A stretch of 64,000 bases of DNA from Schmidtea polychroa (lineage: Eukaryota). The position numbers and the translations under genes are program-made. The stretch is from assembly GCA_044892525.1 (NCBI GenBank), contig CM097886.1, forward strand, positions 97,526,001 to 97,590,000, written 5' to 3'. The notes under the pieces were generated by a model, which worked only from the letters and a program-made list of their open reading frames with translations, did not search any database and was not told the DNA's origin. The first letter of the stretch is position 1. Each line of letters opens with the position of its first letter. Below, one piece after another: positions 38,845 through 64,000 of this stretch.

Positions 38845-38932
<88 letters not shown>

Positions 38933-44103: not shown

Positions 44104-44185
<82 letters not shown>

Positions 44186-47100
44186 TTCACCTGCCAAGCG
44201 TGTCTGTCCTCTTGATTGTTCAGTCCATATTGGTTATTTATTTCATGACCGAAAAAGTACAAATGTGTATCTGTTTCTCTGACAACATCTATGAAATTGA
44301 CATCACCTTAAGGAAATCATTATATGCTTGAATCATTAGATACAAAACCACTTGATAAAACCCAAGCCATTGAGGAAGGAAGAGTAAATAAATTCCTATA
44401 CAATCTCCAATCTGCATAAAGCATAGTTGAATTGTTTTCTGGAACATCTGGATTCTCCTTGTCCGGTCGATAAAGACCCCAGCCTGAGGCTATATAAGAA
44501 TTGTTTAGAGAATCTTTGTACGTCGCCATAGGCTCATCCTCATATCTAGCGCAGCTCATGACGTTCACATCCAGGAAATTTATGAATGTTAAATCGTCTT
44601 TGTTAACCGAGAAAGCCTGTTGATAGAAATTCCTGAAAGTGATTTCTAATTTTGAAACATTAAAATTTATAGTTTGACGAGAATCTCCTCGGCTCATTCA
44701 TATAAACTTGTTTCTTGCCGGTGACCTCACTTGAGCTCAAAAAATATTGATGGATACTGATTCAAATTCATTTTAGATAATTGTTGAGTCAGTACTATCT
44801 GACTCCACGTGTCCCTTTATTGGAAAATAACAAAACAAAAAACTACCCAACGTATATTGAATCACAAAAAATATCTCTCTCAACATAAAATAATCTATCA
44901 CCAAAGTTTTATGAGTTTGACCGATCCTCCGCTCGGTGTTGATGGTTTGTCAAAACCCCTATTTAAAGTCTTGCCTATAATTCAATTCACTTTTTATCAT
45001 ATTGATGTAGTCCAATAATTTCAGATGGTTCTGTACTACTACTTGCTGTTGGCAGTTCTTTATTCCATTTTTTACAGTTATCAGTATAAACAGCCCAGAA
45101 AATAAAACTATCTTTCATCTGAATTATTTCTCTTTTGTTTACTTTTTTGTACTCTCAAATTTTGTTTTTGTTGAATTTAATACAATTAATTTTGTTTTTA
45201 ATGTCATTTTCAATGTGATTTCTAATGGCATACTGTTTGGCTCTTATCGATAGCATGTAAACAGCTTGGCATCCAAACCCAATAATATGATCATTATATC
45301 ATTAAACCATATCCGNNNNNNNNNNNNNNNNNNNNNNNNNNNNNNNNNNNNNNNNNNNNNNNNNNNNNNNNNNNNNNNNNNNNNNNNNNNNNNNNNNNNN
45401 NNNNNNNNNNNNNNNNNNNNNNNNNNNNNNNNNNNNNNNNNNNNNNNNNNNNNNNNNNNNNNNNNNNNNNNNNNNNNNNNNNNNNATTTCGGATATGGTT
45501 TAATGATATAATGATTATATTATTGGGTTTGGATATTATGACAAGGTTACCAACTCGACCATTTTCACCCGAAAACTTCGGGTTTGATGTGGTAACTTCG
45601 GGTCTTCGGGTTAAACACTTATTTCTTCGGGTTTGTCAAAATATTTTCAAAATGTTTGCAGGTTTAGTTTTTATTTAATTCTGCAGGGATTATTAATTAT
45701 TTTTTGCTGGGCATATATTAATTGTTGGTAAAGTTAGCTGGGGTAATAATATAAGTTGTCAATTTTGAATTTCATTTTGCAGTTGAACGTTGTGTGAAGG
45801 TGAAGTAATGTAATTGTGTAATAAATAAAAAAATTAAAACATGTAAGTAATGTCAATAATACAAGCAACATAAGAATTAATTATATTTTCTGAAGTTCCT
45901 AATTTTTTTTATGTTTTATTGAATAAATTTTGTTGTTTTATGTTTTATTGTTATTGAATAAATATATTTTGTTTTATATTCATATGTATTTATTATATAT
46001 TATTAAATCTTCGGATGTAAAAATAATTTCTTCGGATCTGACTCGTTCCAGAGTTGGTAACCCTAACTATAATGATATATATAATGATATATATATATAC
46101 ATCAAATCGAGCCAAAAATCCTTGACAAAGTAATTTTTAGGGAGTCTCAAAAAATGCTTCATATTGTCATGCATAGAATTTCAAGCCAAATATCCCTTAG
46201 GTTATACTCCTACAAATACAATACACCCTCCACAAAAAATAAGATTATTATAAGGCAAGCTTTATGTTTTTTATAATTAATTCTATAATTAGATTGTTTA
46301 AGCTTTGAACTTCATTATTTATTTGATTAAAACAATTATGTAAATATTTTTCATCTTATTATGATCATGTTTTGCGTTGATACGTAATTGATGAATTATT
46401 CATAAGATATTAATTGTAATAAATTGTTTGTGGCATGTTTGTGACNNNNNNNNNNNNNNNNNNNNNNNNNNNNNNNNNNNNNNNNNNNNNNNNNNNNNNN
46501 NNNNNNNNNNNNNNNNNNNNNNNNNNNNNNNNNNNNNNNNNNNNNNNNNNNNNNNNNNNNNNNNNNNNNNNNNNNNNNNNNNNNNNNNNNNNNNNNNNNN
46601 NNNNNNNNNNNNNNNNNNNNNNNNNNNNNNNNNNNNNNNNNNNNNNNNNNNNNNNNNNNNNNNNNNNNNNNNNNNNNNNNNNNNNNNNNNNNNNNNNNNN
46701 NNNNNNNNNNNNNNNNNNNNNNNNNNNNNNNNNNNNNNNNNNNNNNNNNNNNNNNNNNNNNNNNNNNNNNNNNNNNNNNNNNNNNNNNNNNNNNNNNNNN
46801 NNNNNNNNNNNNNNNNNNNNNNNNNNNNNNNNNNNNNNNNNNNNNNNNNNNNNNNNNNNNNNNNNNNNNNNNNNNNNNNNNNNNNNNNNNNNNNNNNNNN
46901 NNNNNNNNNNNNNNNNNNNNNNNAAAGATCCGAAGGTTCCACAAACCCTAAGAGTTTCGTTAGTCAATTCTTCCACAGATTTGATAAAACTAGTCATGCA
47001 TGAATAATTCATAGTTACCCAATCTCCGCTTGGGGTATGATATTGGAAATGATGATAATCTAAAAAATTTGTTCTCTCAGAATCATTTTGACTAAAAATT

Positions 47101-47290
47101 TTCAATCAAAGAAAATGCTGAAATGAGTTCCACAAAATTTACTGTTCCTGCCTCCAATTTAAACAAGCATCAAAAATAAAAGAAGTGTCAATATTTTTAA
47201 AATTCATTGGCCATTTTCGGAATGGTGGAGGAAATGCAATGCCTGATCCGTTCATTATTGAAGCAGGCCATGAATATCTTTTCGTGATAA
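33798..47290 (-). CDS. Divergent semaphorin-like gene, paralog B (multi-exon; Sema-PSI-Ig-hydrophobic C-terminus)
   Basis: Exon-by-exon homology with paralog A, with identical exon lengths and phases (83 nt, 89 nt); PSI CPSYHKCIDCASDPICMWDVSTASC; terminal exon SPWEGVSIFFIIVSICMCIGIIIQFFKL*; some exon sequence may fall in N gaps. Confidence 0.8.
35720..36105 (-). mobile_element. Penelope-like 3' fragment with hammerhead-like motif
   Basis: LLIKSLDPKINVENAVNTCVLIV homologous to 43370-43437; CTGATGA-T-GACAGGAAAACTGCC-GAAA-TATATC at 35760-35799. Confidence 0.8.
36240..36856 (-). CDS. Semaphorin-like B exon group
   Basis: 83-nt exon 36774-36856, then SGTLYRVVLCDFD..WYNWCIFRHTDQPYLYR..NRDPHLDIVKDVLKQ. 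Confidence 0.8.
36548..36591. repeat. (TA)n microsatellite
   Basis: Direct inspection. Confidence 0.95.
37120..37560 (+). mobile_element. Gypsy pol (post-protease/pre-RT) remnant with an internal inversion
   Basis: KVIGGIDFLRKFDIML..FESIFMKYKWDVGNT; the expected continuation KHE(L)I appears on the opposite strand beyond a 47-bp palindrome. Confidence 0.6.
37670..37742. repeat. (ATT)n microsatellite (others at ~525-555, 38845-38932, 44105-44185)
   Basis: Direct inspection. Confidence 0.95.
37763..38760 (-). CDS. Semaphorin-like B exon group (central Sema domain)
   Basis: IGVFNSPG..GALCQLQ | 55-nt intron 38288-38342 | INSNMFHETGS..WPNELPNRVTSMTSAICQYSAVE; 89-nt exon 37763-37851. Confidence 0.8.
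40093..41590 (+). mobile_element. Apparently intact IS630/Tc1/mariner-superfamily DNA transposon
   Basis: 107-bp TIRs (40093-40199, 41484-41590; 1 mismatch seen), each with an internal caatcaatttagacaat repeat; TA on both flanks; single ORF. Confidence 0.95.
40233..41447 (+). CDS. IS630/Tc1-like DDE transposase (404 aa)
   Basis: HTH region; FVDEVGF; IIDNARIHH; YLPPPPPPYSPFLNIIE (38 residues between second D and E, 34 if the run were PP). Confidence 0.95.
   Translation: MSTFPLHLILMNNNEETAVNDVNDRHINNNVIDTNEPSSPGVNAVRDESNNASVELETTISVDSRVKKYDTIDQHARERVISLYSQNITISSISEMVAIKRTSVYNIVKRWESEGRITPLKRGGDKRSKLTPSEKQTIKEWVDENPILTLKNLVEMTINNIGKNVSIHTIDRCLRNFNYTLKCVRLSPVKRNDPTTLEKRRIYAERFLSMLLNNDDKAFVFVDEVGFQVCTRVKRGRSLVGTSVIVNTPATRSRNISVIAAVSKYGTLKYDINPGPINGEKFLSYMVELNNLSINKRITDPIFIIDNARIHHCARFISICEAENIKVVYLPPPPPPYSPFLNIIENCFSKWKNHVLRGNANNENELNDLIMAGFDILTSEDCGGYFRRMLTYIERSRNMELIYE
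41615..43918 (+). mobile_element. Near-complete, 5'-truncated Penelope-like retroelement bounded by 36-bp inverted repeats
   Basis: RT + GIY-YIG ORF, AT-rich 3' region, hammerhead motif at 43673-43713; 41615-41650 is the exact reverse complement of 43883-43918. Confidence 0.95.
41746..43437 (+). pseudogene. Penelope-like RT / GIY-YIG endonuclease ORF with one nonsense mutation
   Basis: VSFDVCSLFTNVP; YQQIDGVAMGSPLAP; YKRYVDDIF; LAFLDL; IYRKPTDTG; VYQFTCNGCNATYIGETSRHLCI*AREH (TGA 43216-43218); ICEALLIKSLNTKINVQ. Confidence 0.95.
44000..44697 (-). CDS. Semaphorin-like B exon group
   Basis: ORF 44320..44697; GDVNFIDVVRETDTHLYFFGHEINNQ; FMLRICKSDPGFKYVP. Confidence 0.8.
44782..44950 (-). repeat. 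LTR fragment related to 28468-28650
   Basis: Shared tctgactcc.cgtgtcc, acccaacgtatattgaa, tttgaccgat.ctccgctcgg.gttgatg; begins with TGTTG. Confidence 0.7.
45542..46065. mobile_element. Putative hAT-like MITE
   Basis: ggttaccaactc / gagttggtaacc inverted termini with ttcggg subterminal repeats; TSD not confirmed. Confidence 0.5.
46925..47290 (-). CDS. Semaphorin-like B 5' exon group
   Basis: FDACLNWRQEQ and YHTPSGDW..VCGTFGS; runs into the N gap at 46923. Confidence 0.75.
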
Positions 47291-49739
47291 TGTGGATCAA
47301 CTTAAATAATCCAGAGTCATTTATAATGATTTATATATAAATATATGTTACAAAATATTATTTGAAAGCAATCACACATGTAATATTAAATAGAGAAAAA
47401 TCACAACGAAGGCGTGTGGGTTCTAGTGTTTTAGGAAGGCTTGGGAATTTATTCTGAAAAGAGACTCTCAGATGCTCTTGCAATTTGATCATCTTCATAG
47501 TTTATAAAGAGAAAAGAAAATTCAAAAAGAGCACTGATGAGGAAGATAAGTATTTTACGGAAAATCTTTTTTGAGTGGATATAAATCTGAAATACTAAAA
47601 TTAGGTTTAAGGTTTTATAAAATGAATAAATTTAATTTCTGAGCCTGAATATGTTCTTTTTAATCCATAATAAATTGTAATGCCGTGCGTATAATATAGT
47701 TAGTGTTCTAAAGAAAATCTCCCTAAAAAAGTAAATTCCTGACCAGTGAACCGAATCTGTGTTATATATTTAGCATTAAAGGTTTCCTAGGCTGCCAATC
47801 CTTAGTTATCTATATTCTTTAATAACTACAGACTTTGTCATTTAACTATTTAAAAGAAATTCATTTATTTATTAAATAGTAATAAAACATAATTTCATAG
47901 CATTCAATATACTCGGTGTGATTTCTATTGGACACTCATTTATTTATTCTTGTTTTGATTGGTTTACTTAATATTATCCGCAAGAAGGCAAGTTTTGAGA
48001 ATTCTCGCGCTAGAGCACAATCCATATCGCTGTTTCTCATTCGATTGGTGGAATACAGATAATTTTCATCGGTGAGATTATTGTTTGGTTCACTATAGCT
48101 TGAAATTTTGCTTTTCTATATTTATTGCTCAAGAGTTCTTCATTTTATTGTTTTCCTTTTTACTTGACATAACCCTCCACAGTCTGTCTTGATTGAAATA
48201 ATCTCCTGCTCTTCTCATAATAATATGCGTTTCCTATACGTTTGCTCTTAACTTTCCGTTTGTTTCAGAAAAAGAATCCAGACATCGCGGATATCTACTT
48301 TTATTTCGGTGAATTATTATTTCAGTTCATCATTCCAATGCCTTCAACTTGTCATTGAAAGGTTTTCTGAACCATATTTGTATGGCCAAAGATGCAGAAG
48401 TACACAATAAAATGATTATAACAAAAATAAAGAGATATTACAATCACATTTTACTGATGAGCTAGTCCAAAGGTATCAATTGCATTTATGTGAGAAAGAT
48501 TTGGCATAAAAACGGAACAAAATTGTCTTTTGTAGCAAAAGGGTTGAATGTTTCTAAGCCAGTGTTTCACAAACCCTTTAGCCCCGCCATCTTTTTAACG
48601 TAACAATTAAAAAAATTAACACTTCAGCCCATTGGAAATTGTGTTGCAGCTGTGAAGTTCCTAAGTGAAACCTTCAATGAAATATTACAACTCTAGTGTG
48701 CATAGCAAGATTATGTAAGCTTTGGCTGTCCTGTTGATGTGAATATTGAAATTTAGCCACAGAAGCTTGAAAAATATTAATTCCTTGTGCTATGCCTTAC
48801 CTAAATGAAAAGGAGAGTTATAAATATAGGAATCATTTCATGTCGCATGGAAATAACTTACATTTGTATTTTTCTAATGTCGAGCCGCACTTAGACACAT
48901 TTTTAAATGAAGAACAAATTCAGTCATAATAATAATAAATAGGGGACTTTAGATTGTGGATTCAAAATAAATTCCTTCATAGAAATGTATTTATAACAAT
49001 TTTATCTTTTAATATGTTCTCATTTTCTCAAAATCTTTTCTATATTTTTATTCAGAGATTTCAGTTTGAGNNNNNNNNNNNNNNNNNNNNNNNNNNNNNN
49101 NNNNNNNNNNNNNNNNNNNNNNNNNNNNNNNNNNNNNNNNNNNNNNNNNNNNNNNNNNNNNNNNNNNNNNNNNNNNNNNNNNNNNNNNNNNNNNNNNNNA
49201 TCTTACATTTTCACCTTCACTCTTGTAGGCCGATAAACTGTTTCTGAAATAGATAAATGATTAGTAAACATGTCGAATTACGTATTTCACTTTCCGCCGA
49301 CATATACCACGCCATTTAATTCCTTGATCATTGAAAATCCCAAAACTGAATCAACCACAAGGTCGTATGCCAACAAATATAAAGAAAATCGAAAACCAGA
49401 AATATCCATTGTTTAAATGAATCGGGTTGAAATACAAACAACAAAACGAAAATAAATCTCATTAAATACAGAACTGGCCACTACGAATGCCGACGTCACG
49501 AAAATGTCATGGAAAATGCAAATTCGTTTGAAAAATTTCTCTGGCATCTCTATGTGAGCCATGCAAAACTGATAAAATTATTTTTATAAGAGAATTATTT
49601 TTAAAATATATTAAAAGTAATTATTATTACAAATATTTTGCATTATTTTTATCAATTATAACACTTGATTAAGGCAAGGCCGACACTTTTTGTTATGTAG
49701 AATCATAATTTTAATCTTTTATTAGAATGAAAATATATG

Positions 49740-50760
49740 AAATATCATTTGTTATGGCAACAGCGGCATCATCAATCAATCCAACGAATCCATCATTTGG
49801 TTAAATTGGTTGGTAAATTGCTTCAAGTCCTACTTGCAGGCTTTCAAACATGAATTGAAAATCTTCTTGTCTTTCATTTGTGCACATTGAAATTCCAAAT
49901 GGATACACTTTATCCATGTCACTGGTCACGCAATGGTCAGGAAAATTATTCCAAATTAGTTTGTAAGTGCTGTCTGCTTGGATGAACTTTGCTGTTGATG
50001 AGATTGATAACAAGCGCCTAGTTGTGACATAAAATCGGAATGATTCTCTCTATTGGGATGTTGAATTTGCTGAAAATGTTTGCTGTTCATCATCATTATC
50101 TATTTTTAGTTGATAAAGAATGAATGGAGAATCTAAGTCTTCTGGAATGGGTGCATTTTTCTCGAGAAGAGTGACTGACTCACCAAAAATTAGTGATTTT
50201 GAATTTGACACTTAAAGTTTGAAGTTAAAAAGTTGTCTATCTTTGGAATTTCAATGTCAGCATGTAAAAGCTTCTCTTTAAACAAATTCTGGCTGATGAA
50301 CTTTGGCTTCTTAACTCCAAGTTGTTACAGCTTTTTGATGGCTTCCTCTGTTGCTGGATTAATCCTTCTTTCGGTTTGATTTTCTAAGATTTCATCATGA
50401 TTGTGATTGCAGGTGGTTTCAAAGTGGACAACACCATAATCGTCACTATTGTATTGAAGTTTCATGACTTGACTACATTGTGGTCCTCTTTTCCTGACAA
50501 GATTGCAACGGTACATCTTTTTGCGTCCATCTCTGGTGTCATATGCTTTATCAAATGACCAAAGTTTGTTTCTTAAGAGCCATTCGACTGCTTGATCTCT
50601 ATTTTAAAATATCTGAATTGCATCCCAAATTTTAAACAATTTGGTTTTTTGGCAACAGGTTCAGTGTCTGAATCTGAAATATCTTCATCAGAATGGTATT
50701 GGTCCAATTCCTGGAATTCATTGCTGTTGTTCATTTTATAATAGTTAAAATAGTTATACA
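49740..50760 (-). pseudogene. MULE (Mutator-like) transposase pseudogene
   Basis: YRCNLVRKRGPQC..HNH, then IQADSTYKLIWNNFP..PFGISMCTNERQEDFQFMFESL (MULE domain pattern); frameshifted. Confidence 0.8.
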
Positions 50761-51829
50761 ATAGTTAAAACAAGTTTGAAAGTAATAATTAATATTAAAA
50801 TTGATTTTTGTTTTTAAATTAAATTTAATTCTCTTTGACAATTAATTTATCTACTCTATTAAATTTTTTTCGAGTTAATTAAATTAATTTATGTGCCCAA
50901 TAAATAAATTCATAAGCACATCAATTTCTTGATGTCAAATAAATAATTAATTATTACATATTATAAACCCACGGGCACAATCTAGTAATTAATTAGCACA
51001 GTAATGTTTTTTTGAGCACATTTAATAATAACCCTTTTTTATTACATATTATTTTATTTAAAATTTAAAATTTTTATCATAAACTATTTTACGCAGTGTG
51101 TTATAGGTGTAAGTAAATTGTTTTTAAACATATATTTTTTTTGCGTGCCCCAAAATTTTGAAATCGTTTAAAGTGTGTCGCAACAAAAAAAGGTTGAGAG
51201 TCACTGATATAGCAGGTATGAATTCGATTATTTATCGATTATTATAATATTTTTTAATCTAAATTGTTATGTGTTTTGTTTGTATGCAAGCATACTTGTG
51301 GTTGAACGGACAATAGGTTTTTTTGATATGGAATATATTTGAAAATATTGAACATCAAATGAAAATAGTCATTTAACGATAAATCAAATGTTGCACTAGA
51401 ACTGATTTCTAGACCCAAAAACTCTAATTTGTGACTAAGGTGCGTGGGTACATAGCACGCAAATAGCAATAAGTTCAGTTAAATATAAAAAATACATCAA
51501 ATAAACAATATTAATTAAGAGGAAAAACAACAAAAATTTAAACACAGAAATTAAATAAAATGATATCAATGCAAGAAGTAGTGCAAGAAACTAACTCAAA
51601 AATAGCAAAGAAACACAAAATTACAAAAAACAGACTCGAGTAGCTCAGAAAGATGGTAAAACATTAAAAATTCTAGAAAAATCCCAGAACATTTCATAAG
51701 AATGGCGACAACCATCATAAAAGCCACATAGATCAATAAAAGTTAACAAAAATAAATAAATTAGTTATAAAAATAAAAATTTGAAAAAAGAAATTAAGAA
51801 AACATCATTGAAATAAAAATTAATTTAAA

Positions 51830-52110
51830 ATTAATATGGAATGTTCTGGAATCGTATGCAGTACACAATTAAAGTCATCACTAAAAATTTTATACACTAC
51901 TTCACACTAGGATCATAATTGAGTAGATCTCAGACCCAAACTGAACACAATCTTACAATTCAGTAATGTAGTCGGTTGAACATCATTAAGGAACTCAGTT
52001 ATACCTATACATTTGTCGAACCTCATTGAATAATAAAATTTTAGTATCAGCGTAAAGATCTTTCTCAGAATTAACCGTATTAATCCTCATAAAGAAGTTC
52101 GACAAGCGTA
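51830..52110 (-). mobile_element. Possible heavily decayed LINE (CR1/L2-like) RT 3' remnant
   Basis: VNSEKDL and YCI..Q-type residues only; many stops. Confidence 0.3.
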
Positions 52111-52952
52111 AATAATAAAATGAAAAGACTTAATTAATTATAAACTCATAGAGGTCAAATTATGCCCATACATCATGGTTAGAATATCGTCCGAAAATCC
52201 CCTAAGTCAACCATAAAATAGAGGTTCATATCGTAGAATATGATTTTTTGTCTGGGAGGAATAGTTCATAAATGTCTAATGATATTAAATTATGAAATAC
52301 GACCTTATAGTACCCTTAGAATACCAGTCTGTGAATGTGTGATATACCTAAATTAGACGATATAACTTTGAATTATACGTAAAACTATAATTTCTCAATG
52401 TATAATATCCCCAACTCATAAAATATAACGTAGTATTGTGCTTAAATATGCCTTAAATATGCCTAAACTATATAACTTAATTCATAAATGTGTAATCTTC
52501 CTGAATTATCAAATATAAATTTTTTTTAAAAAAGTGTACTTAAAATCGTAATTTATAAATATTAAATTAGAAAATATAACTTTATATTATACTTAAAAAT
52601 ATAATTTATAAATTCGTAATATTCCTAAAGTATAGGAAATAATTGTATAAGTAGTGTGGTTATATACCCAACCAAAACAGCCCCCCAACAAAAACATGCC
52701 TCCAAATCACTTAAGCTATTAGAAAAACAACCTAAAACTTATACTTTTATAGTATTTTAACCCTATATTTTGAAAACAACCACCCTTAATGACTCTAACT
52801 GTTTTAATCTTTAAAGCCTCAAACTCAAAAGCTTCAAACTAAAAAGAGAATAGAAAAGAAAATGGCATTATGAAAAAGTTAGAGGGCTATTTGATCTTTA
52901 TCAGATTATTGATTTTAAATTATATAAATTAAAAAATAAATGAAAAATAGTA

Positions 52953-53340
52953 AAACTGCTCTGAGGGGACAGTGGTATTTTTTTTTTTCACTGTCCCCTC
53001 AACAGTTTTTTTTGATCCGGATCATTTTTTTTATTTATTAACCTCTTTCGTTTATCGAATCTCTTCCAATATACAAGCTGGCCAGACTCATACATCAGAA
53101 TCAATCCGATAATAGCAGCACACCTTATTATTCGCTTCTCGCTCGAATACGATTTCATCGGCGTTTTAAGTGTGCTGCTCGAAAGTACAAATGAATTCGA
53201 AAGCGAATTCGAAAGAGGTCCGAAAACAGCTGAGAAATAAATGTGCACATTACCGGGATCGATCCGGGGGTGTTCGAAAGACAGGTGGCGATAATTACCG
53301 GTTCGCCACCATCACCCGTTTCAATATTTTTTTTTTCATA
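52953..53340. other. Cluster of GC-rich hairpins/palindromes in the Polinton left non-coding arm
   Basis: tgaggggacagtg/cactgtcccctca (13-bp stem); tgatccggatca palindrome; agcagcacac/gtgtgctgct; ggtggcga/tcgccacc; repeated (T)CGAAA; T-run at ~53328. Confidence 0.7.
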
Positions 53341-53481
53341 TTTATGTTTAAAAAATAATTAATTAATAAAAAAATAAAATAAATAAAATAAATAAAATAA
53401 AATATACAAGTACTTTATAAATATAAGATACCCACACTATTTTCAATATTATTTTCAAATTTTTAATATTATTTTATGTTG

Positions 53482-53563
53482 AAAAAAAACTAACCTCAGA
53501 TGTGATTTGAACCACTATCCATTTGAACCACTGTGCCAGTCTAGCCCACTGCGCTATCTAGGA
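53482..53563 (-). ncRNA. tRNA-derived Pol III unit (A box, duplicated B box, oligo-T terminator); not a functional tRNA
   Basis: Minus strand TCCTAGA-TAGCGCAGTGG-GCTAGACTGGCAC-AGTGGTTCAAAT-GGAT-AGTGGTTCAAAT-CACA-TCTGAGG-TTAG-TTTTTTTT; acceptor-like stem TCCTAGA/TCTGAGG; no anticodon stem. Confidence 0.6.
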
Positions 53564-53629
53564 TTGGATTTTTGTCATTTTTTAAATTTTTATTATAAAA
53601 AATGAATAATATAAATCTTAAAAAATAAA

Positions 53630-56600
53630 ATGAAAACAGGATATCCAATAAAAAATTTTTTTCTAAAAATGAATTGTAATATTTGCAATAAAGTTTTTAA
53701 AAATAAAACTGGATTAATTTCTCACTTAAAATCGAAAGCTCATTTATTAAAAGAAAATAATCTTAATGATACAAATTCAAAACTTTGTCTTAAATGTAAA
53801 GGAAGATTTCTACATTCTGGATATAATAAACATTTTGAAAATTGTATCGGGAAAAATAGAGAAATATTTACATGTCCTCATTGTAACTTTTCAACAAAAC
53901 TAAATTTCTATTATTTAGAACATATAAAAGAATGTAAAAATAAAAAACAAAATTCTGACGATGAGGAATGTCATTCAGAAGGAGAACCTGATCATGTTGA
54001 AAGAGAAAAATATAACTGGGATAATTTTAATCATATAGATGAATTTCAATTAAAAATTAATGGGCCTGCAACTCCTGGAGAATATATAAATAAAAATAAA
54101 AAAAATATTAAAAATTCTTTCACTGAAGCTTTAAAAAATTATAAACCGACAAGGTATAATGTTATAAAATATAAAATTATAATCAAAGCAAAATACTGGC
54201 GAGGAGCAGAAGAAAAGACAACACCCTTAGATGTTGAAATTGGAATACCTTTTAAATATTTATTTTCAATTAAAGGATTTGATAAAACCATCAAAGAAAT
54301 AATTAAAGCAGCAGAAGCAAAACAAGAGGAAGTAGAAAATGAATTAGGAGATTCAAACTTAGTATTCAACTCTTTCCAAACGTTAGTGATTGATTATTGG
54401 AGAGGATTACCACCCAATCCTAAATCTTATATTCCTACACCCTTTACATCTAAAAATGTTATAAATGTACAGAATAATGATAACAAATGTTTCATCTGGT
54501 CAATACTTGCACATTTACATCCTCAAGCAACAAATCCCCAAAGAGTTTCAAAATACAAACAATATGAAAATGAATTAATATTTCCCAAAGGATTCAAACA
54601 CCCAATGAAACTAGAAGACATTCCAGAATTTGAAAAATTAAATAATCTTAAACTTAATTTTTATGAACATGTTATAGGGAAAGAAATTATTCCAATTTAT
54701 ATTTCAGATAGTGGAACCAAGGATAACGGAGCACAGGACAACGAGATATATCTTTTAATCTTGGAACAAGAAAATAATCAACATTATGTTTTAATAAAAA
54801 ACTTTCAAGCTTTTACATCTCCAGAGAATCCAACTAGTGGAGGAGGAACATGTAAAAGATGTCTTCATTATTCAACAACTAAAACCTCTATGATTAAACA
54901 TACAAGATTTTGTGAAAAAGATGATCCAGCTTTAATTAAAATGCCTAATAATCCCAAGATGTATTTTAAAAACTTTTCAAATTTACTACAAACAGTTGGA
55001 GTTCTTTATGGTGACTTTGAATCTATAAACCATAAACAAGATTTGGTTTATCAATATTTAAAAATAATAGAAAAAAATAAACTCATGGATTTATGGAACT
55101 CCTCAGGAGAGAAGATGAAACCAGAGAGGATGAAAGCCTTTCTAAGAAAAAGAAATAAACCTAATAGTGTTAAAAAAACTAAACAATTACCATCTGCTTA
55201 TAAAATATTATTTAAAAGTAATTATCCTGAACTCATAGAATCTAGAGAATATTCAATTCTAGGAGGTACCCCTGAAGAAGTCTTGAATCATTTTACTAAA
55301 AATATAAATGATCTAGAACATGAAATATTTAAAATATTAAAAACAAAGTATCCTCAAAATATTTCTAATCAACAACAACAAGAATATGAAAATACTTCCA
55401 ACTGTTGGATGTGTAAACAGAATATTCTTCCTGATGAAAAAGTTATAGATCATGATCATTTAAAAAAGGAAAATAATTATCGAGGAGCAGCTCATAAAAA
55501 TTGCAATCTTAATTGCCATACTCCTAAATTTATACCTGTTATATTTCATAATCTTTTTGGATATGACATACATCTATTTATTAAACACCTCGCAGCAAAT
55601 GCTAAAAACTCTTTCAAAGTTATCGGCTTAACAAAGGAAAAATATAAATCAATTGAATATGGAAAATTAAAATTTATAGACTCGTTAAACTTTCTCCAAA
55701 TGTCTTTAGATGCAGTAGCAAAAACAATGAAACCAGAAAATTTTAAAATCACTCGAGAATTCTTGGAAAAAAATAATATTCCTCTAGAAGAATATCCTAC
55801 ATGTTTAGCAAAAGGAATATATCCTTATGACTATGTTGACTCGTTTGAAAGATATAATGAAACAAGTCTTCCTAGCCAAGAAGATTTCTATTCACAACTT
55901 CAAAAAAATCATATTACAAATCAAGAATATTCTCGAGCAAATAAAATGTGGGAATTATTCAAGTGTAAAACTTTAGGAGAATATACAAGTATGTATTTAT
56001 CCTTGGATGTTTATATTCTAGCAGATTGCTTTGAAGAATTTACAAAATCTTTTGTTCTTAAACCTTATAATTATATAACTGCACCCTCTTTAGCTTGGGA
56101 TACTATGTTATATACCATTTGGACTTCAAATATAGAAGAAGGTGATAAAATTATAGATCTTTTAACTAACCTCGATATGTTTAACCAAATTAAAACAAAC
56201 ATTAGAGGAGGAGTCTCTTCAGTAATGGGGAATAGAGAAATAAAAGCTAGAAATGCAATAACTACTAGCCGAAGACTATCTAAACACCCTGATGATCCAT
56301 ATATGAAAATTAACAATGAGGAATTAAAAGAATTATTAGAAACAATGAAAAATCCTATATTTATACTTTATATAGATGCAACAGCTTTATATTCAGGAAT
56401 TATGACTCAATTTTTACCAATGGGTGATTTCACTGAAATAGAGAACCCAACAGATGACCTTATGAAAGAAATACTTTCAACATCGAAAGATTCTCCAATA
56501 GGTTACTTTATAGAATGCGACCTCGACTATCCAGATGATATAAAATCAGGAACAAGATATTTTCCTTTAGCTCCCATAAGAAGAAAGATTGATATCAACG

Positions 56601-57949
56601 AACTTTCTGAATGGCAAATCTCACAAGATAAACCTCCAACAATGAAACTTCTTTGTGATCAAACAGATCGAAGGTTTTATCTTTGTCACTATAGACTCCT
56701 CCAATTTTATCTTTCACGAGGAATGATATTAAAAAAAGTTCATAGTGTCATAAGATTTAAACAAGCTCCATTCATGAAAGCTTTTATCGAGGAGAACATT
56801 AGGTGCCGAAACATTGCAAAAAGAGAAGGTAATCTTTTTAAAGATAATAATTATAAAATTTTAAACAATTCAGTCTTTGGGAAAACAATGGAGAATGTTG
56901 ATAAATATACTCATATTGAACTCCTAACAAATACTACCAAAGATATTAAGCGTTATAATCGCATGCTAGGAAAGCCTACATTTAAAAACGCACAAGTATT
57001 TTCTGAAAATCTTACTGCAGTAGAATTAAAAAATTATGAGAAAACATATAACAAACCAATATTTATAGGGTTTACAATTTTAGAACTTTCAAAATTACAA
57101 ATGTATGAAACATATTATAACATCTTACAACCTATATACGGAGCAAATATATCAATGCATGCAATGGATACAGATTCAATGTTTTTAACAATAAGAACTC
57201 ATGATTTACAAAAAGATATGAAAGAAAATCCTATACTTTCAAATTTAATAAATTCATCTGGAGAACTATTTTCGTTTAAAGATGAAAAACCTTTTACTCC
57301 TATAGAAAATGGAATATTTATTCGTGCTAAACAATATTCATACGAAACATTTAGAAACCCTGAATTTATAACTAGATCATTTATATTTAAAACTCCAGAA
57401 ACAGAAGAAACCATTACACATAGATATCCTATATTTCCTAAAGAAGAAAAACCTGTAAAGGATAACAGATGTAAAGGAATACAGAGAGTGGTGGCAAAGA
57501 ATCTTTCTCATCAAGATTATATAGATACATTGAATCCAAATCATAAAGATAAAATTGATGAAATACATCAACTTAAAAGTGAAAACCATGATATTCACTT
57601 GATAGAATCTCAAAAAGTATCATTATCAAATTATGATGATAAGAGATTCATACTAAGTGATTTAAAGACAACTCTACCTATTGGAAATAATTTAATCCCT
57701 ATAATAAAAAATCTAGAAAAGTTGAATAAGTTATATGATACAAAGATTACTGATCTTGATATTTATAATGTTGAAATTATTTATCCCGAGAGAGAAATCG
57801 AGAAACCTTTATATTCTCAAGTTTTTAATCCTATATGTTTAGAACTTAAATATTTTAATACTGATCCTGAATATATAAAAGGTCTAAGTGATAAAGAATT
57901 TAAAGATCATAAATTAATGATTCATAGGTTGGCTTTCAACCATAACTGA
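53630..57949 (+). CDS. polB: Protein-primed family B DNA polymerase (pPolB), 1439 aa, with N-terminal zinc fingers and an endonuclease VII-like insert
   Basis: Exo YGDFES, FHNLFGYD, YLSLDV; Pol YIDATALYSGIM, KILNNSVFGK, AMDTDS; NNDNKCFIWSILA; CWMC..DHDH..RGAAHKNCNL; DDKR. Confidence 0.97.
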   Translation: MKTGYPIKNFFLKMNCNICNKVFKNKTGLISHLKSKAHLLKENNLNDTNSKLCLKCKGRFLHSGYNKHFENCIGKNREIFTCPHCNFSTKLNFYYLEHIKECKNKKQNSDDEECHSEGEPDHVEREKYNWDNFNHIDEFQLKINGPATPGEYINKNKKNIKNSFTEALKNYKPTRYNVIKYKIIIKAKYWRGAEEKTTPLDVEIGIPFKYLFSIKGFDKTIKEIIKAAEAKQEEVENELGDSNLVFNSFQTLVIDYWRGLPPNPKSYIPTPFTSKNVINVQNNDNKCFIWSILAHLHPQATNPQRVSKYKQYENELIFPKGFKHPMKLEDIPEFEKLNNLKLNFYEHVIGKEIIPIYISDSGTKDNGAQDNEIYLLILEQENNQHYVLIKNFQAFTSPENPTSGGGTCKRCLHYSTTKTSMIKHTRFCEKDDPALIKMPNNPKMYFKNFSNLLQTVGVLYGDFESINHKQDLVYQYLKIIEKNKLMDLWNSSGEKMKPERMKAFLRKRNKPNSVKKTKQLPSAYKILFKSNYPELIESREYSILGGTPEEVLNHFTKNINDLEHEIFKILKTKYPQNISNQQQQEYENTSNCWMCKQNILPDEKVIDHDHLKKENNYRGAAHKNCNLNCHTPKFIPVIFHNLFGYDIHLFIKHLAANAKNSFKVIGLTKEKYKSIEYGKLKFIDSLNFLQMSLDAVAKTMKPENFKITREFLEKNNIPLEEYPTCLAKGIYPYDYVDSFERYNETSLPSQEDFYSQLQKNHITNQEYSRANKMWELFKCKTLGEYTSMYLSLDVYILADCFEEFTKSFVLKPYNYITAPSLAWDTMLYTIWTSNIEEGDKIIDLLTNLDMFNQIKTNIRGGVSSVMGNREIKARNAITTSRRLSKHPDDPYMKINNEELKELLETMKNPIFILYIDATALYSGIMTQFLPMGDFTEIENPTDDLMKEILSTSKDSPIGYFIECDLDYPDDIKSGTRYFPLAPIRRKIDINELSEWQISQDKPPTMKLLCDQTDRRFYLCHYRLLQFYLSRGMILKKVHSVIRFKQAPFMKAFIEENIRCRNIAKREGNLFKDNNYKILNNSVFGKTMENVDKYTHIELLTNTTKDIKRYNRMLGKPTFKNAQVFSENLTAVELKNYEKTYNKPIFIGFTILELSKLQMYETYYNILQPIYGANISMHAMDTDSMFLTIRTHDLQKDMKENPILSNLINSSGELFSFKDEKPFTPIENGIFIRAKQYSYETFRNPEFITRSFIFKTPETEETITHRYPIFPKEEKPVKDNRCKGIQRVVAKNLSHQDYIDTLNPNHKDKIDEIHQLKSENHDIHLIESQKVSLSNYDDKRFILSDLKTTLPIGNNLIPIIKNLEKLNKLYDTKITDLDIYNVEIIYPEREIEKPLYSQVFNPICLELKYFNTDPEYIKGLSDKEFKDHKLMIHRLAFNHN

Positions 57950-58043
57950 AACCAACGATATTTAATTTTTTAATAATAAAATGTCGACAATTAATTTAAG
58001 CAACTATAGCAACCTGATCTACTTTTTTAAAAATACACCCATT

Positions 58044-58655
58044 TTATAAGTAAGAATTCTTTAACCATTTTTCTCGAGATGTTTTTTTATTACTTATAAC
58101 ATTAGCCACCATGCCCTCCCTTTTTAATCTTATAACCTCATTCTTTATATCTTGTATTATTTGATTTGATTTCATTATTTCTTCGTCTGTCAGGATTCCA
58201 TCTTCCAAAGCTTTTAATTGAAATAAAAATAATTTAGAGATTCCTAATTCTATTGATAAACAAACTTCTCTATATAAACTTTTCTTTTTAGAAGTATAAG
58301 ATAATGAAACTATTTCTGTTAAGAAACCATCAGCCACAGAAATACTTCCAAGTATTACAGGTGCAAGAGTAACAACTGGTAAAGTTATGGGTAAAATAAC
58401 TGTTAATATTGCAGATGCAAATCCTAAAGAATAACCTATAACTTTTAAAACTGTATTCCCTTTATTCCATCTATTTTTAATTTTTTTATAATGCTTTAAT
58501 AAATCTTGTAAATGTAAGGTTTCTGATTTAAATTCTTTTACTCTCATAATTTCAAGTTCTGTGGGAGCCGAGGCCTTGGAACCTTTGTGACCTTCGGAAT
58601 AATATCCTGATGATCTCAATTCTGGGTAAAATTTTTCTTCTCTTACTTCTTCCAT
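58044..58655 (-). CDS. Polinton/adintovirus membrane protein (GasderminX-like)
   Basis: YP.L N-terminus, two hydrophobic segments (VIGYSLGFASAILTVILPITLPVVTLAPVILGSISV), C-terminal KALEDGILTDEE motif; family assignment from recall, not searched. Confidence 0.6.
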   Translation of the reverse strand: MEEVREEKFYPELRSSGYYSEGHKGSKASAPTELEIMRVKEFKSETLHLQDLLKHYKKIKNRWNKGNTVLKVIGYSLGFASAILTVILPITLPVVTLAPVILGSISVADGFLTEIVSLSYTSKKKSLYREVCLSIELGISKLFLFQLKALEDGILTDEEIMKSNQIIQDIKNEVIRLKREGMVANVISNKKTSREKWLKNSYL

Positions 58656-58761
58656 TTTAATAATTAAAAAAATAAGACTTTATTCTTCTGAGCACCATCT
58701 GGCACCAATACTCGGATATCAAAAGAAACTCTTGTTGAGAGGATATCTTTATACAATTCTC

Positions 58762-59649
58762 TCAATGCTTTTTTTCATAAAATATTAAATCTATATATTG
58801 TACAAGTGAACTAGAAAAATGAATATTCTTACTTTTAACTTTATGTAGTTTATGTGAATGAGTATTAACATACCAATCTCCGTGTGGTAAATCATAACTA
58901 GTCATTATAACATCACCCTTTTCAAGCTTACTATTATAATCACATTTCACAAACCATTTCATTCTTTCATTATCATCATCAAACAAAAAGAAATAAGGAT
59001 CAATAATTTTTACAACCATAAAAACACCCCATTCTTTACTGTTTGTTGTTATTAAACTTGGTTCTATAAAATGTTTATATGTATGGGGTAATAATGTTTT
59101 ATTCTGTTCTAATTCAGCAGCTCTTTTTCTAATACTATGTGTGGTGTTAATGTGTGTTCCATGAGACTCTAAATTTGAAATTCTTTTATTAAATGATGTA
59201 ATCATCTCATTTATTATTTTATATATTGTATTAAATTTAGTATTCATAATTTGTTTATCTTTAGAATTTAATATAGCAGTATTTAACTTTACAACTTGTT
59301 CAGTTAACAGACTTTGTAACTTGTCAAATTTATCATTAAATCGTTGTTCGATATTATTAAGCTTTGATTCCATTGAATCAATTTTTGTTGTTAATGAACT
59401 TTCAATTCTTGTTGTTGTTAAATCAGTATATTTTTTAACACCATCTACATATTTCTTATTAACTGCATCAGCTTCATCAGTTGGTAAAGATAAATCTTTT
59501 ATCTTGTGTCCATTTAAATTTAAATCTCCTTTCATTGAATCACCTCTTTCATTAATATATTTATTTTCTGTTAAAGTTAATATTTCTTCTGTATTAAACC
59601 CTGTTTTTATTGTTCCACCACCTCTATTACAAGGAATATAAGAACTCAT
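58762..59649 (-). CDS. Fiber/spike-like virion protein
   Basis: GDSMKGDLNLNGHKIKDLSLPTDEADAVNKKYVD (tail-fiber-type repeat), then a heptad coiled coil and a globular C-terminus. Confidence 0.65.
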   Translation of the reverse strand: MSSYIPCNRGGGTIKTGFNTEEILTLTENKYINERGDSMKGDLNLNGHKIKDLSLPTDEADAVNKKYVDGVKKYTDLTTTRIESSLTTKIDSMESKLNNIEQRFNDKFDKLQSLLTEQVVKLNTAILNSKDKQIMNTKFNTIYKIINEMITSFNKRISNLESHGTHINTTHSIRKRAAELEQNKTLLPHTYKHFIEPSLITTNSKEWGVFMVVKIIDPYFFLFDDDNERMKWFVKCDYNSKLEKGDVIMTSYDLPHGDWYVNTHSHKLHKVKSKNIHFSSSLVQYIDLIFYEKKH

Positions 59650-59689
59650 TTATTAATAATTTAAAATGGACGGAGTCCCCTGAGAGGAA

Positions 59690-60453
59690 CTATACCTGTT
59701 TCAAATGTAAATACATTGAAATCTCTTCTCCATTAAAATCAATCAATTCTCCTTCTTGATTAAGAATTTTAAAATTAATATCCATTATATATTTTCTACA
59801 TAAAGGTAAATAATTTGGAGGATTCATTCTTTCAACTATTTTATATCCCATAGGAACTGTGTTTGAGGGAAAGGAATATAAAACATTTGTTTGTTTACCA
59901 TTATTATAAGAACCTGTTATACAATCGCAATGAATATTTATTGTGTTTGTATTTATTATTTTTATAATATGTTCTGATGTTATTATTTATCTTCTTTTAT
60001 TGTTATATCCATAGGTTTAAATCCTAAAACTGTGTGAAAGAAACAATTATCTAAAAAACTAATTTTTATATTCTTCAAAGTCATTACACATTTTGAAGTT
60101 GGTATATCCATTTTAATTTTAATACCTTCATTTGTTTTTTTAGAAAGTATATCATTTAAATCTTTTATCTCATATGCCCCAGGTTCTATTGTTATAATTT
60201 CTGGTTTATGCCCATCACGAGTTTGAATAGTAAATTTATTATTATCTTTAGTTATATTAAAAATAGTATTATAAGCACAAAACCATAATAGCCCCAATTC
60301 ATAATTTAAATTTTGATCTAATTTAATTGAATCTTGAAAGTTTATAGTAAAGTCTGATTCTTTTGAATTTATAGATAAAGTTCTTGAATATTTATCTGAC
60401 ATTATGTTTACCATTTTTTTTAAATTATCTTCCGGAGGGTTGTGAAGCTCCAT
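59690..60453 (-). pseudogene. Penton (minor capsid protein), split by a frameshift at ~59985
   Basis: N-half SKESDFTINF..LDQNLNYELGL..YNTIFNI..PGAYEI; C-half in another frame INIHCDCITGSYNNG..VLYSFP..GYKIVE..YLP..NQEGELIDFNGEEISMYLHLK*. Confidence 0.9.
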
Positions 60454-60501
60454 TTCTTTAGTAGTAAATTCATATAGTAAAAATCCTTATAGTAAAAATC
60501 C

Positions 60502-60966
60502 TTATAGTAGAGATTCTAGATCATTATAAATTTCTTGAATTATAGATTCAAAATCCTGCGTATGCCCCTTTCCCTCTCCCTTATTCAATCTATACAAAAC
60601 ATATAAACTTAAAATACCACATATTTTAGTATTCAAAGGTTGAACTTGTAAAGAGTTAAAAGTATAACCATTTGGGGAATCAATCGGAGAACCTCTCAAG
60701 AGATAATCTTCAACTTCTTTAGTAGGTTTAATCCCAAAAGAATCAAAGTAGATAGATTTCTTATATATACAAACCCAATGAGATCCTTTTTCATTTGAAT
60801 TTTGATAATTGATTATTATATTCAGGGGACTCTCCAGACTTGATAATTCATCATTCATTAATATTTTAATTTTTAAATTTAAATAATTTGCATAATCTTT
60901 TAAATCAAAATTTGTTTTTGCATTTATTCCAAATGTTTTTAAAAAATCTAATATTGAAGGAGTCAT
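60502..60966 (-). CDS. Adenain-like cysteine (maturation) protease
   Basis: GSHWVCIY..YFDSFG..QVQPLNTKICG catalytic H/D/Q/C arrangement. Confidence 0.92.
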   Translation of the reverse strand: MTPSILDFLKTFGINAKTNFDLKDYANYLNLKIKILMNDELSSLESPLNIIINYQNSNEKGSHWVCIYKKSIYFDSFGIKPTKEVEDYLLRGSPIDSPNGYTFNSLQVQPLNTKICGILSLYVLYRLNKGEGKGHTQDFESIIQEIYNDLESLL

Positions 60967-60988
60967 TTTGTATTTTAAAACTTCGTAT

Positions 60989-61870
60989 TTATAACTTCGT
61001 ATACTTATTAAATTTATCTTTTGAAATTATTCCTTGTTTTAACAAATCTTTAGAAATCTTTAAAATATCAGAATCTAAATTATTATGTCCTGCTTTCCTT
61101 GCAGCTAATAGTTTTCTTAATTCAATAAAAAGATTGATGGGATTTGGTTTACCACCTTCACTAATTAATCCCTCTCCCTCTGTAACAACATAACCCTTTT
61201 CATTTTTATTTAAATAATTCTTTAAATCTTGAATATATTTTGCTTTAGAACTAGCTCTTATTAATCTTATTAAATTTAAATATTTTTTAATTTCTTCAAC
61301 ATCATCTGAAGAATATCCACAAAGTAATCTATAAAAATCATCTGTAAATTCAAAGTCTAAATATTCATTATTATAAACATTTTGTGAATGAATACGTGAT
61401 TTATTTTCTGAATTTGAATATAAAGTAAAGTTTTGTTTATTAATTGTTATTATTTGATATCCTTCAGTATTAGTATTAAATGTGGGTCTAATTGAAGGAG
61501 GTAAATCATCTCTAATTTTAGGATCAACTTTAAGAGGTTTTGTTTTTAAAAACATTTCTTCTTCTTCCACATTAGAAATTCTTCTGCGTTTTCTTTGATT
61601 TCTTTCAGGATGGTTTTCACTGGATTCTTTTTCTTTATCCTGCCACTCTAGTTCTTTTATTTTTTGTTTTTTATCTTCTAACTCTTTAAATTTTGCTTGC
61701 TCATTGAAATCTTCCAACTCTTTTATAGCTTTAATTGTTGGCCCCTGTTGTTGTGTTATTACCTCATTTAATATTATAGATTCAGCATGTTGAGTTGTAT
61801 CTTTTTTATTATATTTATCTTGTTCTGATTGTAATTTTTTTAAAAGTGCTAATCTTTCTTCATATACCAT
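60989..61870 (-). CDS. Conserved Polinton-type hypothetical protein
   Basis: 293-aa intact ORF; N-terminal coiled coil with P.IKAI; basic RNQRKRRR stretch; C-terminal LRKLLAARKAGHN..LLKQGII. Confidence 0.7.
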   Translation of the reverse strand: MVYEERLALLKKLQSEQDKYNKKDTTQHAESIILNEVITQQQGPTIKAIKELEDFNEQAKFKELEDKKQKIKELEWQDKEKESSENHPERNQRKRRRISNVEEEEMFLKTKPLKVDPKIRDDLPPSIRPTFNTNTEGYQIITINKQNFTLYSNSENKSRIHSQNVYNNEYLDFEFTDDFYRLLCGYSSDDVEEIKKYLNLIRLIRASSKAKYIQDLKNYLNKNEKGYVVTEGEGLISEGGKPNPINLFIELRKLLAARKAGHNNLDSDILKISKDLLKQGIISKDKFNKYTKL

Positions 61871-61892
61871 TTTAATGGTATCAAAAATGGTA

Positions 61893-62486
61893 TCATAGTT
61901 CGAAGGGCTTCAAGTATAATCCTTTACCATTTTTAGTTTTACAAAGGCATCCATTCTTTAAAGATTTACATATTTTTTTTAAATCTTCTTTATCTTTTGA
62001 AGATAAAGATTCAGATGTAGAAATTTGATTTTTTTAAAAATCATTTAAACCTCTACCTTTATAAGGATCAAGATAGAGACCTTTGCCCTGAGACTTTTGC
62101 CGACTCCCCTCATATGGATTAAGATAGAGACCCTTTCCAACGGACACTCCCCCTTTAGCTTGCCCTACCTTCTTCATTGAATCGATTTCAGTTTGTAGTT
62201 TTTCTTTTTCTAGGTCTGTCTTTTGAGATTCTTTAGCTTTTTGAACTGTAGTTGCAATTCCTCCAGCTATTCCAGCAGCACCTGATAAACCAGCAATGAT
62301 TGCAGGTATTAAAGCAGCTAATGGAAGAATGCCACCTTCTTTAGCTTCGTGGAGCTTCGCTCTAACTTGTTCTTTTACATGTTTTCCAATAAAATATTTT
62401 TTACCATCAATTACTACTGATTTATTTTTATTTGAATTTATTAATTCTTGCAAAGATTCTTCAGTAGAGGAACTCTTCGAGGTCAT
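61893..62486 (-). CDS. Adenovirus pX-like core/membrane protein precursor (150 aa; 197 aa if the TAA at 62034-62036 is a lesion or is read through)
   Basis: EGG/ILPLAALIPAIIAGLSGAAGIA resembles adenoviral pX RGG/ILPLLIPLIAAAIG; GKGLYLxP occurs twice before and once after the stop, in frame. Confidence 0.75.
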
Positions 62487-62502
62487 TTTATAATAAAAAA
62501 AA

Positions 62503-63294
62503 ATGGATATTTGGAAACCAATTTTAAATAGACATAAGAGTAAATTTAATAATAAAGTATTTCCTGATAATTTTAGATTATTAATTGTTGGTTCTTCTGG
62601 ATGTGGAAAGAATGTACTTGTTTTGAGAATGTTACTTGAAGATGATTTTTTAGATTATAATAATTTAATCTTTTATTCTACAACCATAAATCAACCAGAA
62701 TTACAACTTTTGAAATGTGGATTTGAAAATAAATTAACTAAAAAAACAATAATTGATATTTTTAAAAATCAACATAGGTGTCCTGAAGAAGTTTTTCAAC
62801 CTTGTGATATGGTTGATTGGTATAAGGAAAAGATTTTAGAATCAGATATTAGTAATAAAAATGATTATATTTGTGAAGAAGGGCAGGAGGCAATTCAAGT
62901 TTTATTCTCTAATAAACCTGAAGATGTTTTACATTGTGATTTACTTCCTAAAGATAAAAAGAATCTAGTTATATTTGATGATGTTGTTAATATGAAAAAT
63001 CAAGAGATTCAAAAGAGTTATTTTACACGAGGTCGACATAATAATTGTAATGTTATTTATATATCTCAAACATATTATGCTTTAGATAAAAATTCAATAA
63101 GAAATAATTCTAATTGTTTTATATTTTTTAAATTAGATCGCCGTGATAAGAATATGATTTATAATGATTTATTTTCAAATGTTGAACCTGATAAGAATAT
63201 GTTTGATATGTTTGTTGATAATCATTGGAAAGAAAAATATAATTATATTTATTTGGATAGAGAAGAAGCTGAAATATGGAAAAGTTTGTTTTAG
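62503..63294 (+). CDS. A32/FtsK-like genome packaging ATPase
   Basis: Walker A GSSGCGKN (N at the usual S/T), Walker B LVIFDD, RGRH..VIYISQ. Confidence 0.93.
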   Translation: MDIWKPILNRHKSKFNNKVFPDNFRLLIVGSSGCGKNVLVLRMLLEDDFLDYNNLIFYSTTINQPELQLLKCGFENKLTKKTIIDIFKNQHRCPEEVFQPCDMVDWYKEKILESDISNKNDYICEEGQEAIQVLFSNKPEDVLHCDLLPKDKKNLVIFDDVVNMKNQEIQKSYFTRGRHNNCNVIYISQTYYALDKNSIRNNSNCFIFFKLDRRDKNMIYNDLFSNVEPDKNMFDMFVDNHWKEKYNYIYLDREEAEIWKSLF

Positions 63295-63305
63295 GGCTTG
63301 TCGAC

Positions 63306-64000
63306 TTAAAAATCTGTTTTCTGTAGTTCATTATTATAAAATCTACCTAATATTTTTTCATTATTTAAATCAAAGATGCTATATGTTATTGGAGTTGTAT
63401 AATTTATTTTATTTATAATAAAAATTTCATTTGTCCATTTTGCTGTGAATCCTTTTTCAAATTTATTTTTATATTTAAATATTCTTACTCGGTCACCAAT
63501 TTTAAACTTTGGTTTTTCAATAACATCATTTTCAATATTTACCACTTTAATGGTTTCAGGCTTCATGGAAGCATTTAAAGGTGTTAATTTTATAGAACTA
63601 TGTACATCATTATTATATTCATTTACAATCTTTTGTAACAATTCATTGTTCCATTTTTGTTTTCCAATAGCAGTAAAATATTTCCACATTTTATTTTTTA
63701 ATGTTCTATTTAATCTTTCAACTACAACTGCTTTTCCTTCGTTTTCTGTTGAATATAATTTAATATCATTTTCATTTAAAAACTTTGTAAAAACTTTGTT
63801 ATAAAATTCTGTTCCTTTATCACACCATAAATATTTTGGGATTCTTTGATTTTCTTCAAATATATTTTCAAATGCTTCTGTAATAGAATATCCTGTTTTA
63901 TTTTCTAAACACCTTGCAAAAGCAAATCTTGTATATAAATCTATTACAGTTAAAATTATTTTATATTTTTCAGGGTCTGATGATTTGGGCATAAAGACTA
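63306..64000 (-). CDS. Retroviral-like (rve) integrase, N-terminus beyond the window edge
   Basis: LTVIDLYTRFA, LWCDKGTEF, VVERLNRTLK; Polinton-type C-terminus KFKIGDRVRI..WT.EIF..GRFY..ELQK. Confidence 0.95.
   Translation of the reverse strand, partial: VFMPKSSDPEKYKIILTVIDLYTRFAFARCLENKTGYSITEAFENIFEENQRIPKYLWCDKGTEFYNKVFTKFLNENDIKLYSTENEGKAVVVERLNRTLKNKMWKYFTAIGKQKWNNELLQKIVNEYNNDVHSSIKLTPLNASMKPETIKVVNIENDVIEKPKFKIGDRVRIFKYKNKFEKGFTAKWTNEIFIINKINYTTPITYSIFDLNNEKILGRFYNNELQKTDF

Follow-up and report, generated by a model that had tools for sequence, protein, structure and literature searches.

In the last 11.35 kb of a 64,000-nucleotide stretch of the planarian Schmidtea polychroa (assembly GCA_044892525.1, contig CM097886.1, positions 97,526,001 to 97,590,000; hereafter the window, numbered from its first letter), we find what is very probably a chromosomally integrated Polinton/Maverick, or eupolintovirus, with a divergent Beta-like polymerase, one copy of a young multi-copy family. 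We read it as a Polinton because it carries the hallmark genes of these elements, because it opens with an (AGT)2 end that coincides with a step in contig depth, because of the gene sets of its complete relatives, and because host DNA flanks it on the left. Polinton/Maverick elements make up the family Eupolintoviridae, formerly Adintoviridae (PMC12451622), and the window element shares with them a protein-primed DNA polymerase (pPolB), an rve integrase, an A32 ATPase, an adenain, a penton, the (AGT)2 end and compact genes without introns. Its features are collected in Table 1.

Table 1. Features of the element and its left border, in window coordinates (TIR, terminal inverted repeat; aa, amino acids)
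Feature	Position	Strand	Basis or remark
Polinton (adintovirus-type), left 11.35 kb	52650-64000		very probably integrated in an animal chromosome; runs off the window end
Candidate left target-site duplication, tgtata	52644-52649	+	sequence alone; putative
Left end: (AGT)2 terminus and ~1 kb of non-coding, TIR-like DNA	52650-53629	.	depth step; inverted repeat presumed
Long hairpin, terminal region	52952-53009	+	-32 kcal/mol, z -5.1, 0/200 shuffles
Second long hairpin, terminal region	53052-53112	-	region 53040-53170, minus strand: z -3.4, 1/200 shuffles
Outward-facing unit resembling RNA polymerase III (Pol III) type 2	53482-53556	-	A boxes at 53556 and 53538, B box at 53513, T8 run
pPolB, 1439 aa	53630-57949	+	Pfam PF03175, 47 bits, over cut-off
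203-aa hydrophobic-hairpin protein, conserved Polinton gene	58044-58655	-	neighbours in relatives
Fiber-like protein	58667-59649	-	open frame 58762-59649, 295 aa; tail in another frame, 58667-58774
Penton (minor capsid protein), one frameshift near 59985	59690-60453	-	profile, and fold via homolog
Adenain-like cysteine protease, 154 aa, H63-D75-Q109-C116	60502-60966	-	profile and fold
293-aa conserved Polinton protein, no assigned function	60989-61870	-	24% identity to L090 (E 1e-4)
pX-like core protein gene, with a stop inside at 62034-62036	61893-62486	-	Adeno_PX, below cut-off
A32/FtsK-type genome-packaging ATPase, 263 aa	62503-63294	+	Pox_A32 E 1e-8, 35.5 bits, over cut-off
Retrovirus-like integrase, 5' part beyond the window	63306-64000	-	rve E 1e-9, 38.6 bits, over cut-off

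The left end

AGTAGT begins at 52650, directly after tgtata, and gives the element the 5' (AGT)2 end that is the commonest among Mavericks (PMC8097293). By itself the hexamer is at chance level, with eight occurrences in the window where about 20 are expected. The terminus, which a sequence-only reading of the same DNA had put forward, is nevertheless supported, because depth (summed contig depth per bin) steps up at the bin starting at 52658 in all four runs compared, those holding a small share of the stretch having been left out: 64-fold in X1 (24,142 to 1,537,752), 86-fold in X3 (13.9 to 1195), 123-fold in X11 (11.9 to 1463) and 1454-fold in X15 (143 to 208,491). None of the runs listed as carrying the stretch is labelled RNA; run X11 is only guessed to be RNA and covers the flank as well, so it is uninformative on expression. 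Over the bins 52658-53645 depth is 1195-1621 in X3 and 1463-2244 in X11, against 89-469 and 64-606 in the interior, while X1 has little excess over this terminal kilobase and X15 is patchy. Indirectly, the excess in two of the four runs suits an inverted repeat that is common also to shorter derivatives. A similar ATATACCC motif starts a metagenomic relative, L001, 183 bases ahead of its pPolB gene.

No long inverted repeat emerged from a repeat search of 52000-64000, by self-BLAST the left end has no second copy inside the window, and among the contigs, the only material of this kind, there was no site at which many molecules end. Another metagenomic Polinton contig opens exactly with AGTAGT (L065, positions 1-20) and has a full gene set. 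Just left of the Polinton end, at 51100-52160, lies another high-copy repeat, which X1 and X15 show as a peak in depth. CpG is frequent in the terminal kilobase (observed/expected 1.11), and the coding part, 53630-64000, has a CpG ratio of 0.38 with a third-position GC content of 11-21%, the rest of the window standing at 0.87.

Gene content

The sequence-only reading had listed nine compact intronless genes, and nine are indeed present at 53630-64000 in the standard code: the polymerase lies on the plus strand and is followed by six minus-strand genes, the ATPase stands head to head with the sixth of them, and the integrase gene begins past the window end. Its assignments of pPolB, integrase and packaging ATPase pass their Pfam cut-offs, and those of adenain and penton are borne out by profile and fold. 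Its pX-like and fiber-like labels do have matches, but these are weak (Adeno_PX under the cut-off, at E 0.047 for the window protein and 0.0027 and 0.00011 for relatives; a PHROG tail fiber at E 4e-8), so that both names are weakly supported and putative. Residues 25-70 of the fiber-like protein match a widely repeated unit. No TATAAAC box stands in the 60 bases ahead of eight gene starts.

The polymerase belongs to the protein-primed PolB type and has all six motifs, ExoI-III and PolA-C; for the polymerase/exonuclease motifs, as for the Walker and DDE motifs below, we used patterns that we take to be the accepted ones. Its PF03175 match is weak and partial, covering positions 11-220 of 468, and at E 0.01 this family is found in just four of the 11 pPolB members aligned. 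In the same alignment C287, H385 and the DHDH..AH..CN columns are invariant, and PF02945 matches seven of the 11, the window protein itself not among them. The closest relatives lack both an insertion of some 30 residues (57350-57460) and some 55 further residues at the C-terminus (57770-57949). A spliced polymerase leader, considered as a candidate, appears unnecessary, as relatives start level with 53669. The ATPase carries Walker A, Walker B and an arginine finger, as expected of an A32-like enzyme, and the integrase has the D, D and E motifs of the rve type and is 49% identical to that of the relative L090.

For the protease, all 15 sequences compared conserve H63, D75, Q109 and C116, the profile matches African swine fever virus S273R (4e-12) and adenain (6e-8), and the best fold matches of its model are adenains; a single-sequence search of the PDB with it returned nothing relevant. 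In a relative, an adenain-like domain heads a 578-aa protein (L023, 62-1795) and is possibly fused to another virion gene, and in the window a perfect 15-base tandem repeat of 2.5 copies (60473-60509) lies between the protease and penton genes. The two pieces of the penton gene align end to end on single ORFs (open reading frames) of complete relatives and are 29% and 40% identical to L090, whose modelled penton (predicted local distance difference test score, pLDDT, 90.7) matches the mavirus penton at E 7e-11, as well as adenovirus pentons. The single jelly-roll penton fold is thus taken from this homolog, and the window's own gene is frameshifted.

Two further genes are conserved. The 203-aa protein, for which no Pfam family was found, is 41% identical to the gene adjoining pPolB in L001 and 14-20% identical to genes of L009, L017, L090 and L095, with a common motif KAL.D..I.DEE; from its hydrophobic hairpin it is probably membrane-active. 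The 293-aa protein has a C-terminal L..R.AG..N motif in common with L090, L095 and L088, and the ESM Atlas gave no usable match for it. Kinship between these two families was considered and rejected, since profile comparison finds them unrelated. No major capsid gene occurs among the ORFs of 52650-64000, and the full virion morphogenesis module claimed by the sequence-only reading is to that extent not there.

Relatives and classification

Searches with pPolB found 270 relatives. Heading the 120 listed are unnamed metagenomic proteins with 47%, 47%, 38%, 39% and 39% identity (the first three being P0001 from L001, P0002 and P0003); the named proteins, which come from insects, a spider, a coral and Rhizophagus, are 32-37% identical. 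In a tree of the window protein and 49 listed relatives (the 40 best of the 120 plus nine further named ones; 700 columns, midpoint-rooted, no Alpha outgroup), the window protein groups with P0001-P0003 (support 1.0), and these together with P0004-P0006 stand apart from every named sequence (0.995), a grouping to which long branches and AT bias may contribute. The pPolB phylogeny that had been suggested as a check on the element thus places it with metagenomic sequences and away from named ones, which supports, at the level of protein comparison, a lineage that appears to lack named close relatives among the listed pPolB matches; planarian Polintons in Repbase are outside this comparison. In IMG/VR we found no close relative: none of six candidates from the single pPolB query and none of 186 from the pX alignment was confirmed. 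The pPolB alignment searched against viral contigs gave 22 loci, 21 of them 26-33% identical; the remaining locus reaches 40% in its best segment.

L001 has pPolB followed by the membrane gene in convergent order, as in the window, and differs in having a short leader where the window element has a 1-kb structured end. Three complete relatives, L090, L095 and L088, combine pPolB, ATPase, penton, protease and fiber-like genes with a gene for a 426-439 aa capsid-like protein, so labelled from position, size and a weak Capsid_N match in another locus. Elements of the L090 type are more distant, with a pPolB only about 30% identical to the window's and a different gene order. The order in the window also departs from the two-module plan of vertebrate Polintons, and three genes of the window copy are broken.

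The affinity appears to be with the Beta adintoviruses. The weak, partial fit to PF03175 is in keeping with the Beta class that Starrett et al. define in part by polymerases divergent from pfam03175 (PMC8502044), and with the type represented by Terrapene box turtle adintovirus the window element shares a divergent pPolB and pX-like and membrane-hairpin genes; its invariant C287 and H385 may be the Cys/His pair of an N-terminal OTU-like domain, as in that type. It differs in having its own polymerase clade and in the setting of its pX-like domain, which is carried by a short, basic core protein in which GKGLYL is repeated; the names Cupiennin and GasderminX, used for Beta adintoviruses, could not be placed on any window gene, the 203-aa protein being without a family match. 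The distinction between pPolB1 and pPolB2 that Jeong et al. draw relates to group 2 (10.1101/2023.08.22.554363) and would be inapplicable if the Beta reading holds. In print, Polintons are piRNA (PIWI-interacting RNA) targets and abundant in Schmidtea (PMC8532177), and Polintons/Mavericks are expanded in Dugesia (bioRxiv 10.64898/2025.12.11.693146); in the portions of both sources drawn on here they appear as repeat classes without a gene-level description. The part of the PMC8502044 supplement text used here names no flatworm element, and a literature search pairing planarians with adintoviruses found nothing.

A damaged copy of a young family

Five of the nine genes are complete and open, three (penton, pX-like and the fiber tail) are broken, and one is cut by the window end. 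The sequence-only reading's statement that most frames are open therefore holds narrowly, and its description of the element as near-intact is overstated, the three disrupted structural genes being set against relatives 92-97% identical; nor is this an 'intact' Maverick in the sense of PMC8097293. The pX-like relative P0169, 97% identical, has a single 191-aa frame across both pieces, and in an alignment holding all of the 13 pX-like matches except P0176, 11 of 12 relatives extend beyond the stop, the twelfth being a short fragment. The fiber-like relative P0182, 92% identical, is 317 aa long, with a tail that corresponds to the other frame at 58667-58774; the window gene is about 20 residues shorter, and a contig end hangs loose in X3 at 58768, by the lesion. 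A non-standard genetic code at the stop at 62034 is ruled out because the 1439-aa polymerase frame has no such codons and the 97% relative lacks the stop. Since the 92-97% relatives are unbroken, the family keeps its penton, pX-like and fiber frames and this copy, or its assembly, does not. Having lost its penton, core and fiber-tail frames, this copy is unable to build particles alone.

The stretch is present, whole or in part, in 20 of 24 listed runs from eight studies, and six runs carry at least half its words; these runs bear three organism labels or are metagenomes. Eight listed pieces from X3, out of 642, show 21 differences in 5,037 bases, and X3 pieces have depths of 92-257 inside the element against about 5 in the flank. 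Because the differences are few and the depth inside exceeds that of the flank, these data point to tens of young copies. With named pPolB matches at 37% or below among those listed, this upholds the earlier proposal of an endogenous adintovirus-like Polinton from a young family. For the window copy itself, a recent insertion is no more than plausible.

Alternative readings

Some of what we found weighs against our reading. The capsid gene, the right TIR and the target duplication are not seen, the right end lying beyond the window, and no listed contig spans the junction of flank and element at 52650. The Beta label was set with the Terrapene exemplar outside the comparison and no named exemplar among the proteins compared, and a search of 50,697 phage records gave the polymerase no match at E 1e-3, when Beta polymerases reportedly show moderate similarity to those of phages or megaviruses. 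Being the longest of the 642, the eight X3 pieces will lie nearest the family majority; contig depth does not give true copy numbers; and about a third of the X1 depth at the penton break lacks the difference from the window seen in the remainder. That remainder (205,818 of 314,219), with all the depth in X3 (143 of 143) and X11 (31 of 31; X15 leaves the break uncovered), could also be taken to mean that the locus holds an intact element whose three breaks are errors of a gapped draft, the scaffold having seven N gaps and the stop at 62034 lying at the junction of two homopolymer runs. We consider this unlikely, given that pPolB forms one unbroken frame of 4.3 kb in spite of its many A runs, that the fiber lesion spans several codons and that X1 matches the flank at 49200-49847 without any difference; moreover, 96% of vertebrate Maverick copies are defective (PMC8097293).

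All three lesions fall in structural genes and 11.35 kb contain no capsid gene, as one might expect if the whole family were a capsid-less transposon with decaying morphogenesis genes. The penton, core and fiber frames kept in sister copies make this very unlikely, as does the fact that just 11.35 kb of an expected 12.7-24.6 kb (PMC8097293) are visible; capsid genes occur in more than 80% of Polintons, and their loss is usually joint with that of protease and ATPase (PMC4028283). Hardly credible, in our view, is a free virus, or DNA of another organism such as food or a symbiont, mis-assembled onto a host scaffold. Contamination of this kind is documented (PMC8502044), the stretch turns up under three organism labels and in metagenomes, and the closest listed proteins come from unnamed metagenome assemblies. 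Yet no N gap falls within 49200-64000, the boundary lies exactly on (AGT)2, all 30 bins of flank and element are covered in X1, X3 and X11, and the lesions suggest that the DNA has spent time in a genome.

Proposed life cycle and significance

If the integrated Polinton family behaves like known Polintons, its intact members would exist as linear DNA copied by the protein-primed polymerase from inverted ends, where a putative OTU-like domain would release the terminal protein, as PMC11071308 hypothesizes, and each insertion by the integrase would duplicate 6 bases of target. A capsid gene is expected to the right of 64000; together with it, the penton, ATPase, protease, core and fiber genes would allow double jelly-roll particles, matured by the protease, to form. 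The copy described here keeps its polymerase, ATPase and protease frames and would move or be packaged at most with help from sister copies, on which it would rely for penton, core and fiber.

We find it tempting to speculate further that this is a flatworm-specific, active Beta-type polintovirus lineage that forms particles, moves between related hosts and makes a Pol III small RNA, like the virus-associated (VA) RNA of adenoviruses, from its end. The movement between hosts is suggested by the three organism labels and by near-identical genes in metagenome assemblies; as a whole we rate this scenario as rather unlikely. As of 2021, no one had observed the particles of an animal Maverick (PMC8097293). 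A young family of many copies, with structural genes open in sisters and a host that is probably tractable in the laboratory, is a reasonable place to seek them. The window polymerase fills a gap in the Beta-type tree, and a single damaged, truncated copy adds little past marking the family.

Left-end RNA features and host flank

The Pol III-type unit near the left end is the sole pairing of A and B boxes in the whole window, under consensus patterns that we assume to be adequate, and did not arise in any of 5000 Markov simulations. It is not a tRNA and has no stable fold (z 0.69). ARAGORN found no genes, Rfam gave seven matches, all sub-threshold, and for the hairpin at 52952-53009 no Rfam family came near its gathering score.

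To the left, intron-bearing host genes and other transposons show that the flank is an animal-type chromosome. Two tandem paralogs of a multi-exon host gene lie on the minus strand at 721-19914 and 33919-47330, 41-85% alike by exon, with introns filled with transposons. A relative, P0127, is 63-79% identical in the best exons and has a weak PSI match; from this domain and the architecture we take the gene to be a divergent semaphorin. An exon had weak ESM Atlas matches. Among the transposons are a Tc1/IS630-like element at 40157-41526, with a 405-aa open frame (DDE_3) and inverted-end-like 43-base repeats (40157-40199 and 41484-41526), and a 500-aa reverse transcriptase frame at 41716-43218, presumably Penelope-like, with a GIY-YIG-like motif at its end and an internal 45-base duplication (42855-42947). 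Decayed transposase remains lie on the minus strand at 11189-13392 (hAT-like, by a motif that we take to be diagnostic) and 49804-50603 (MULE-like, by a weak Pfam match), and a nested tandem array of 18-, 62- and 142-base units at 26621-27063 adjoins an assembly gap.

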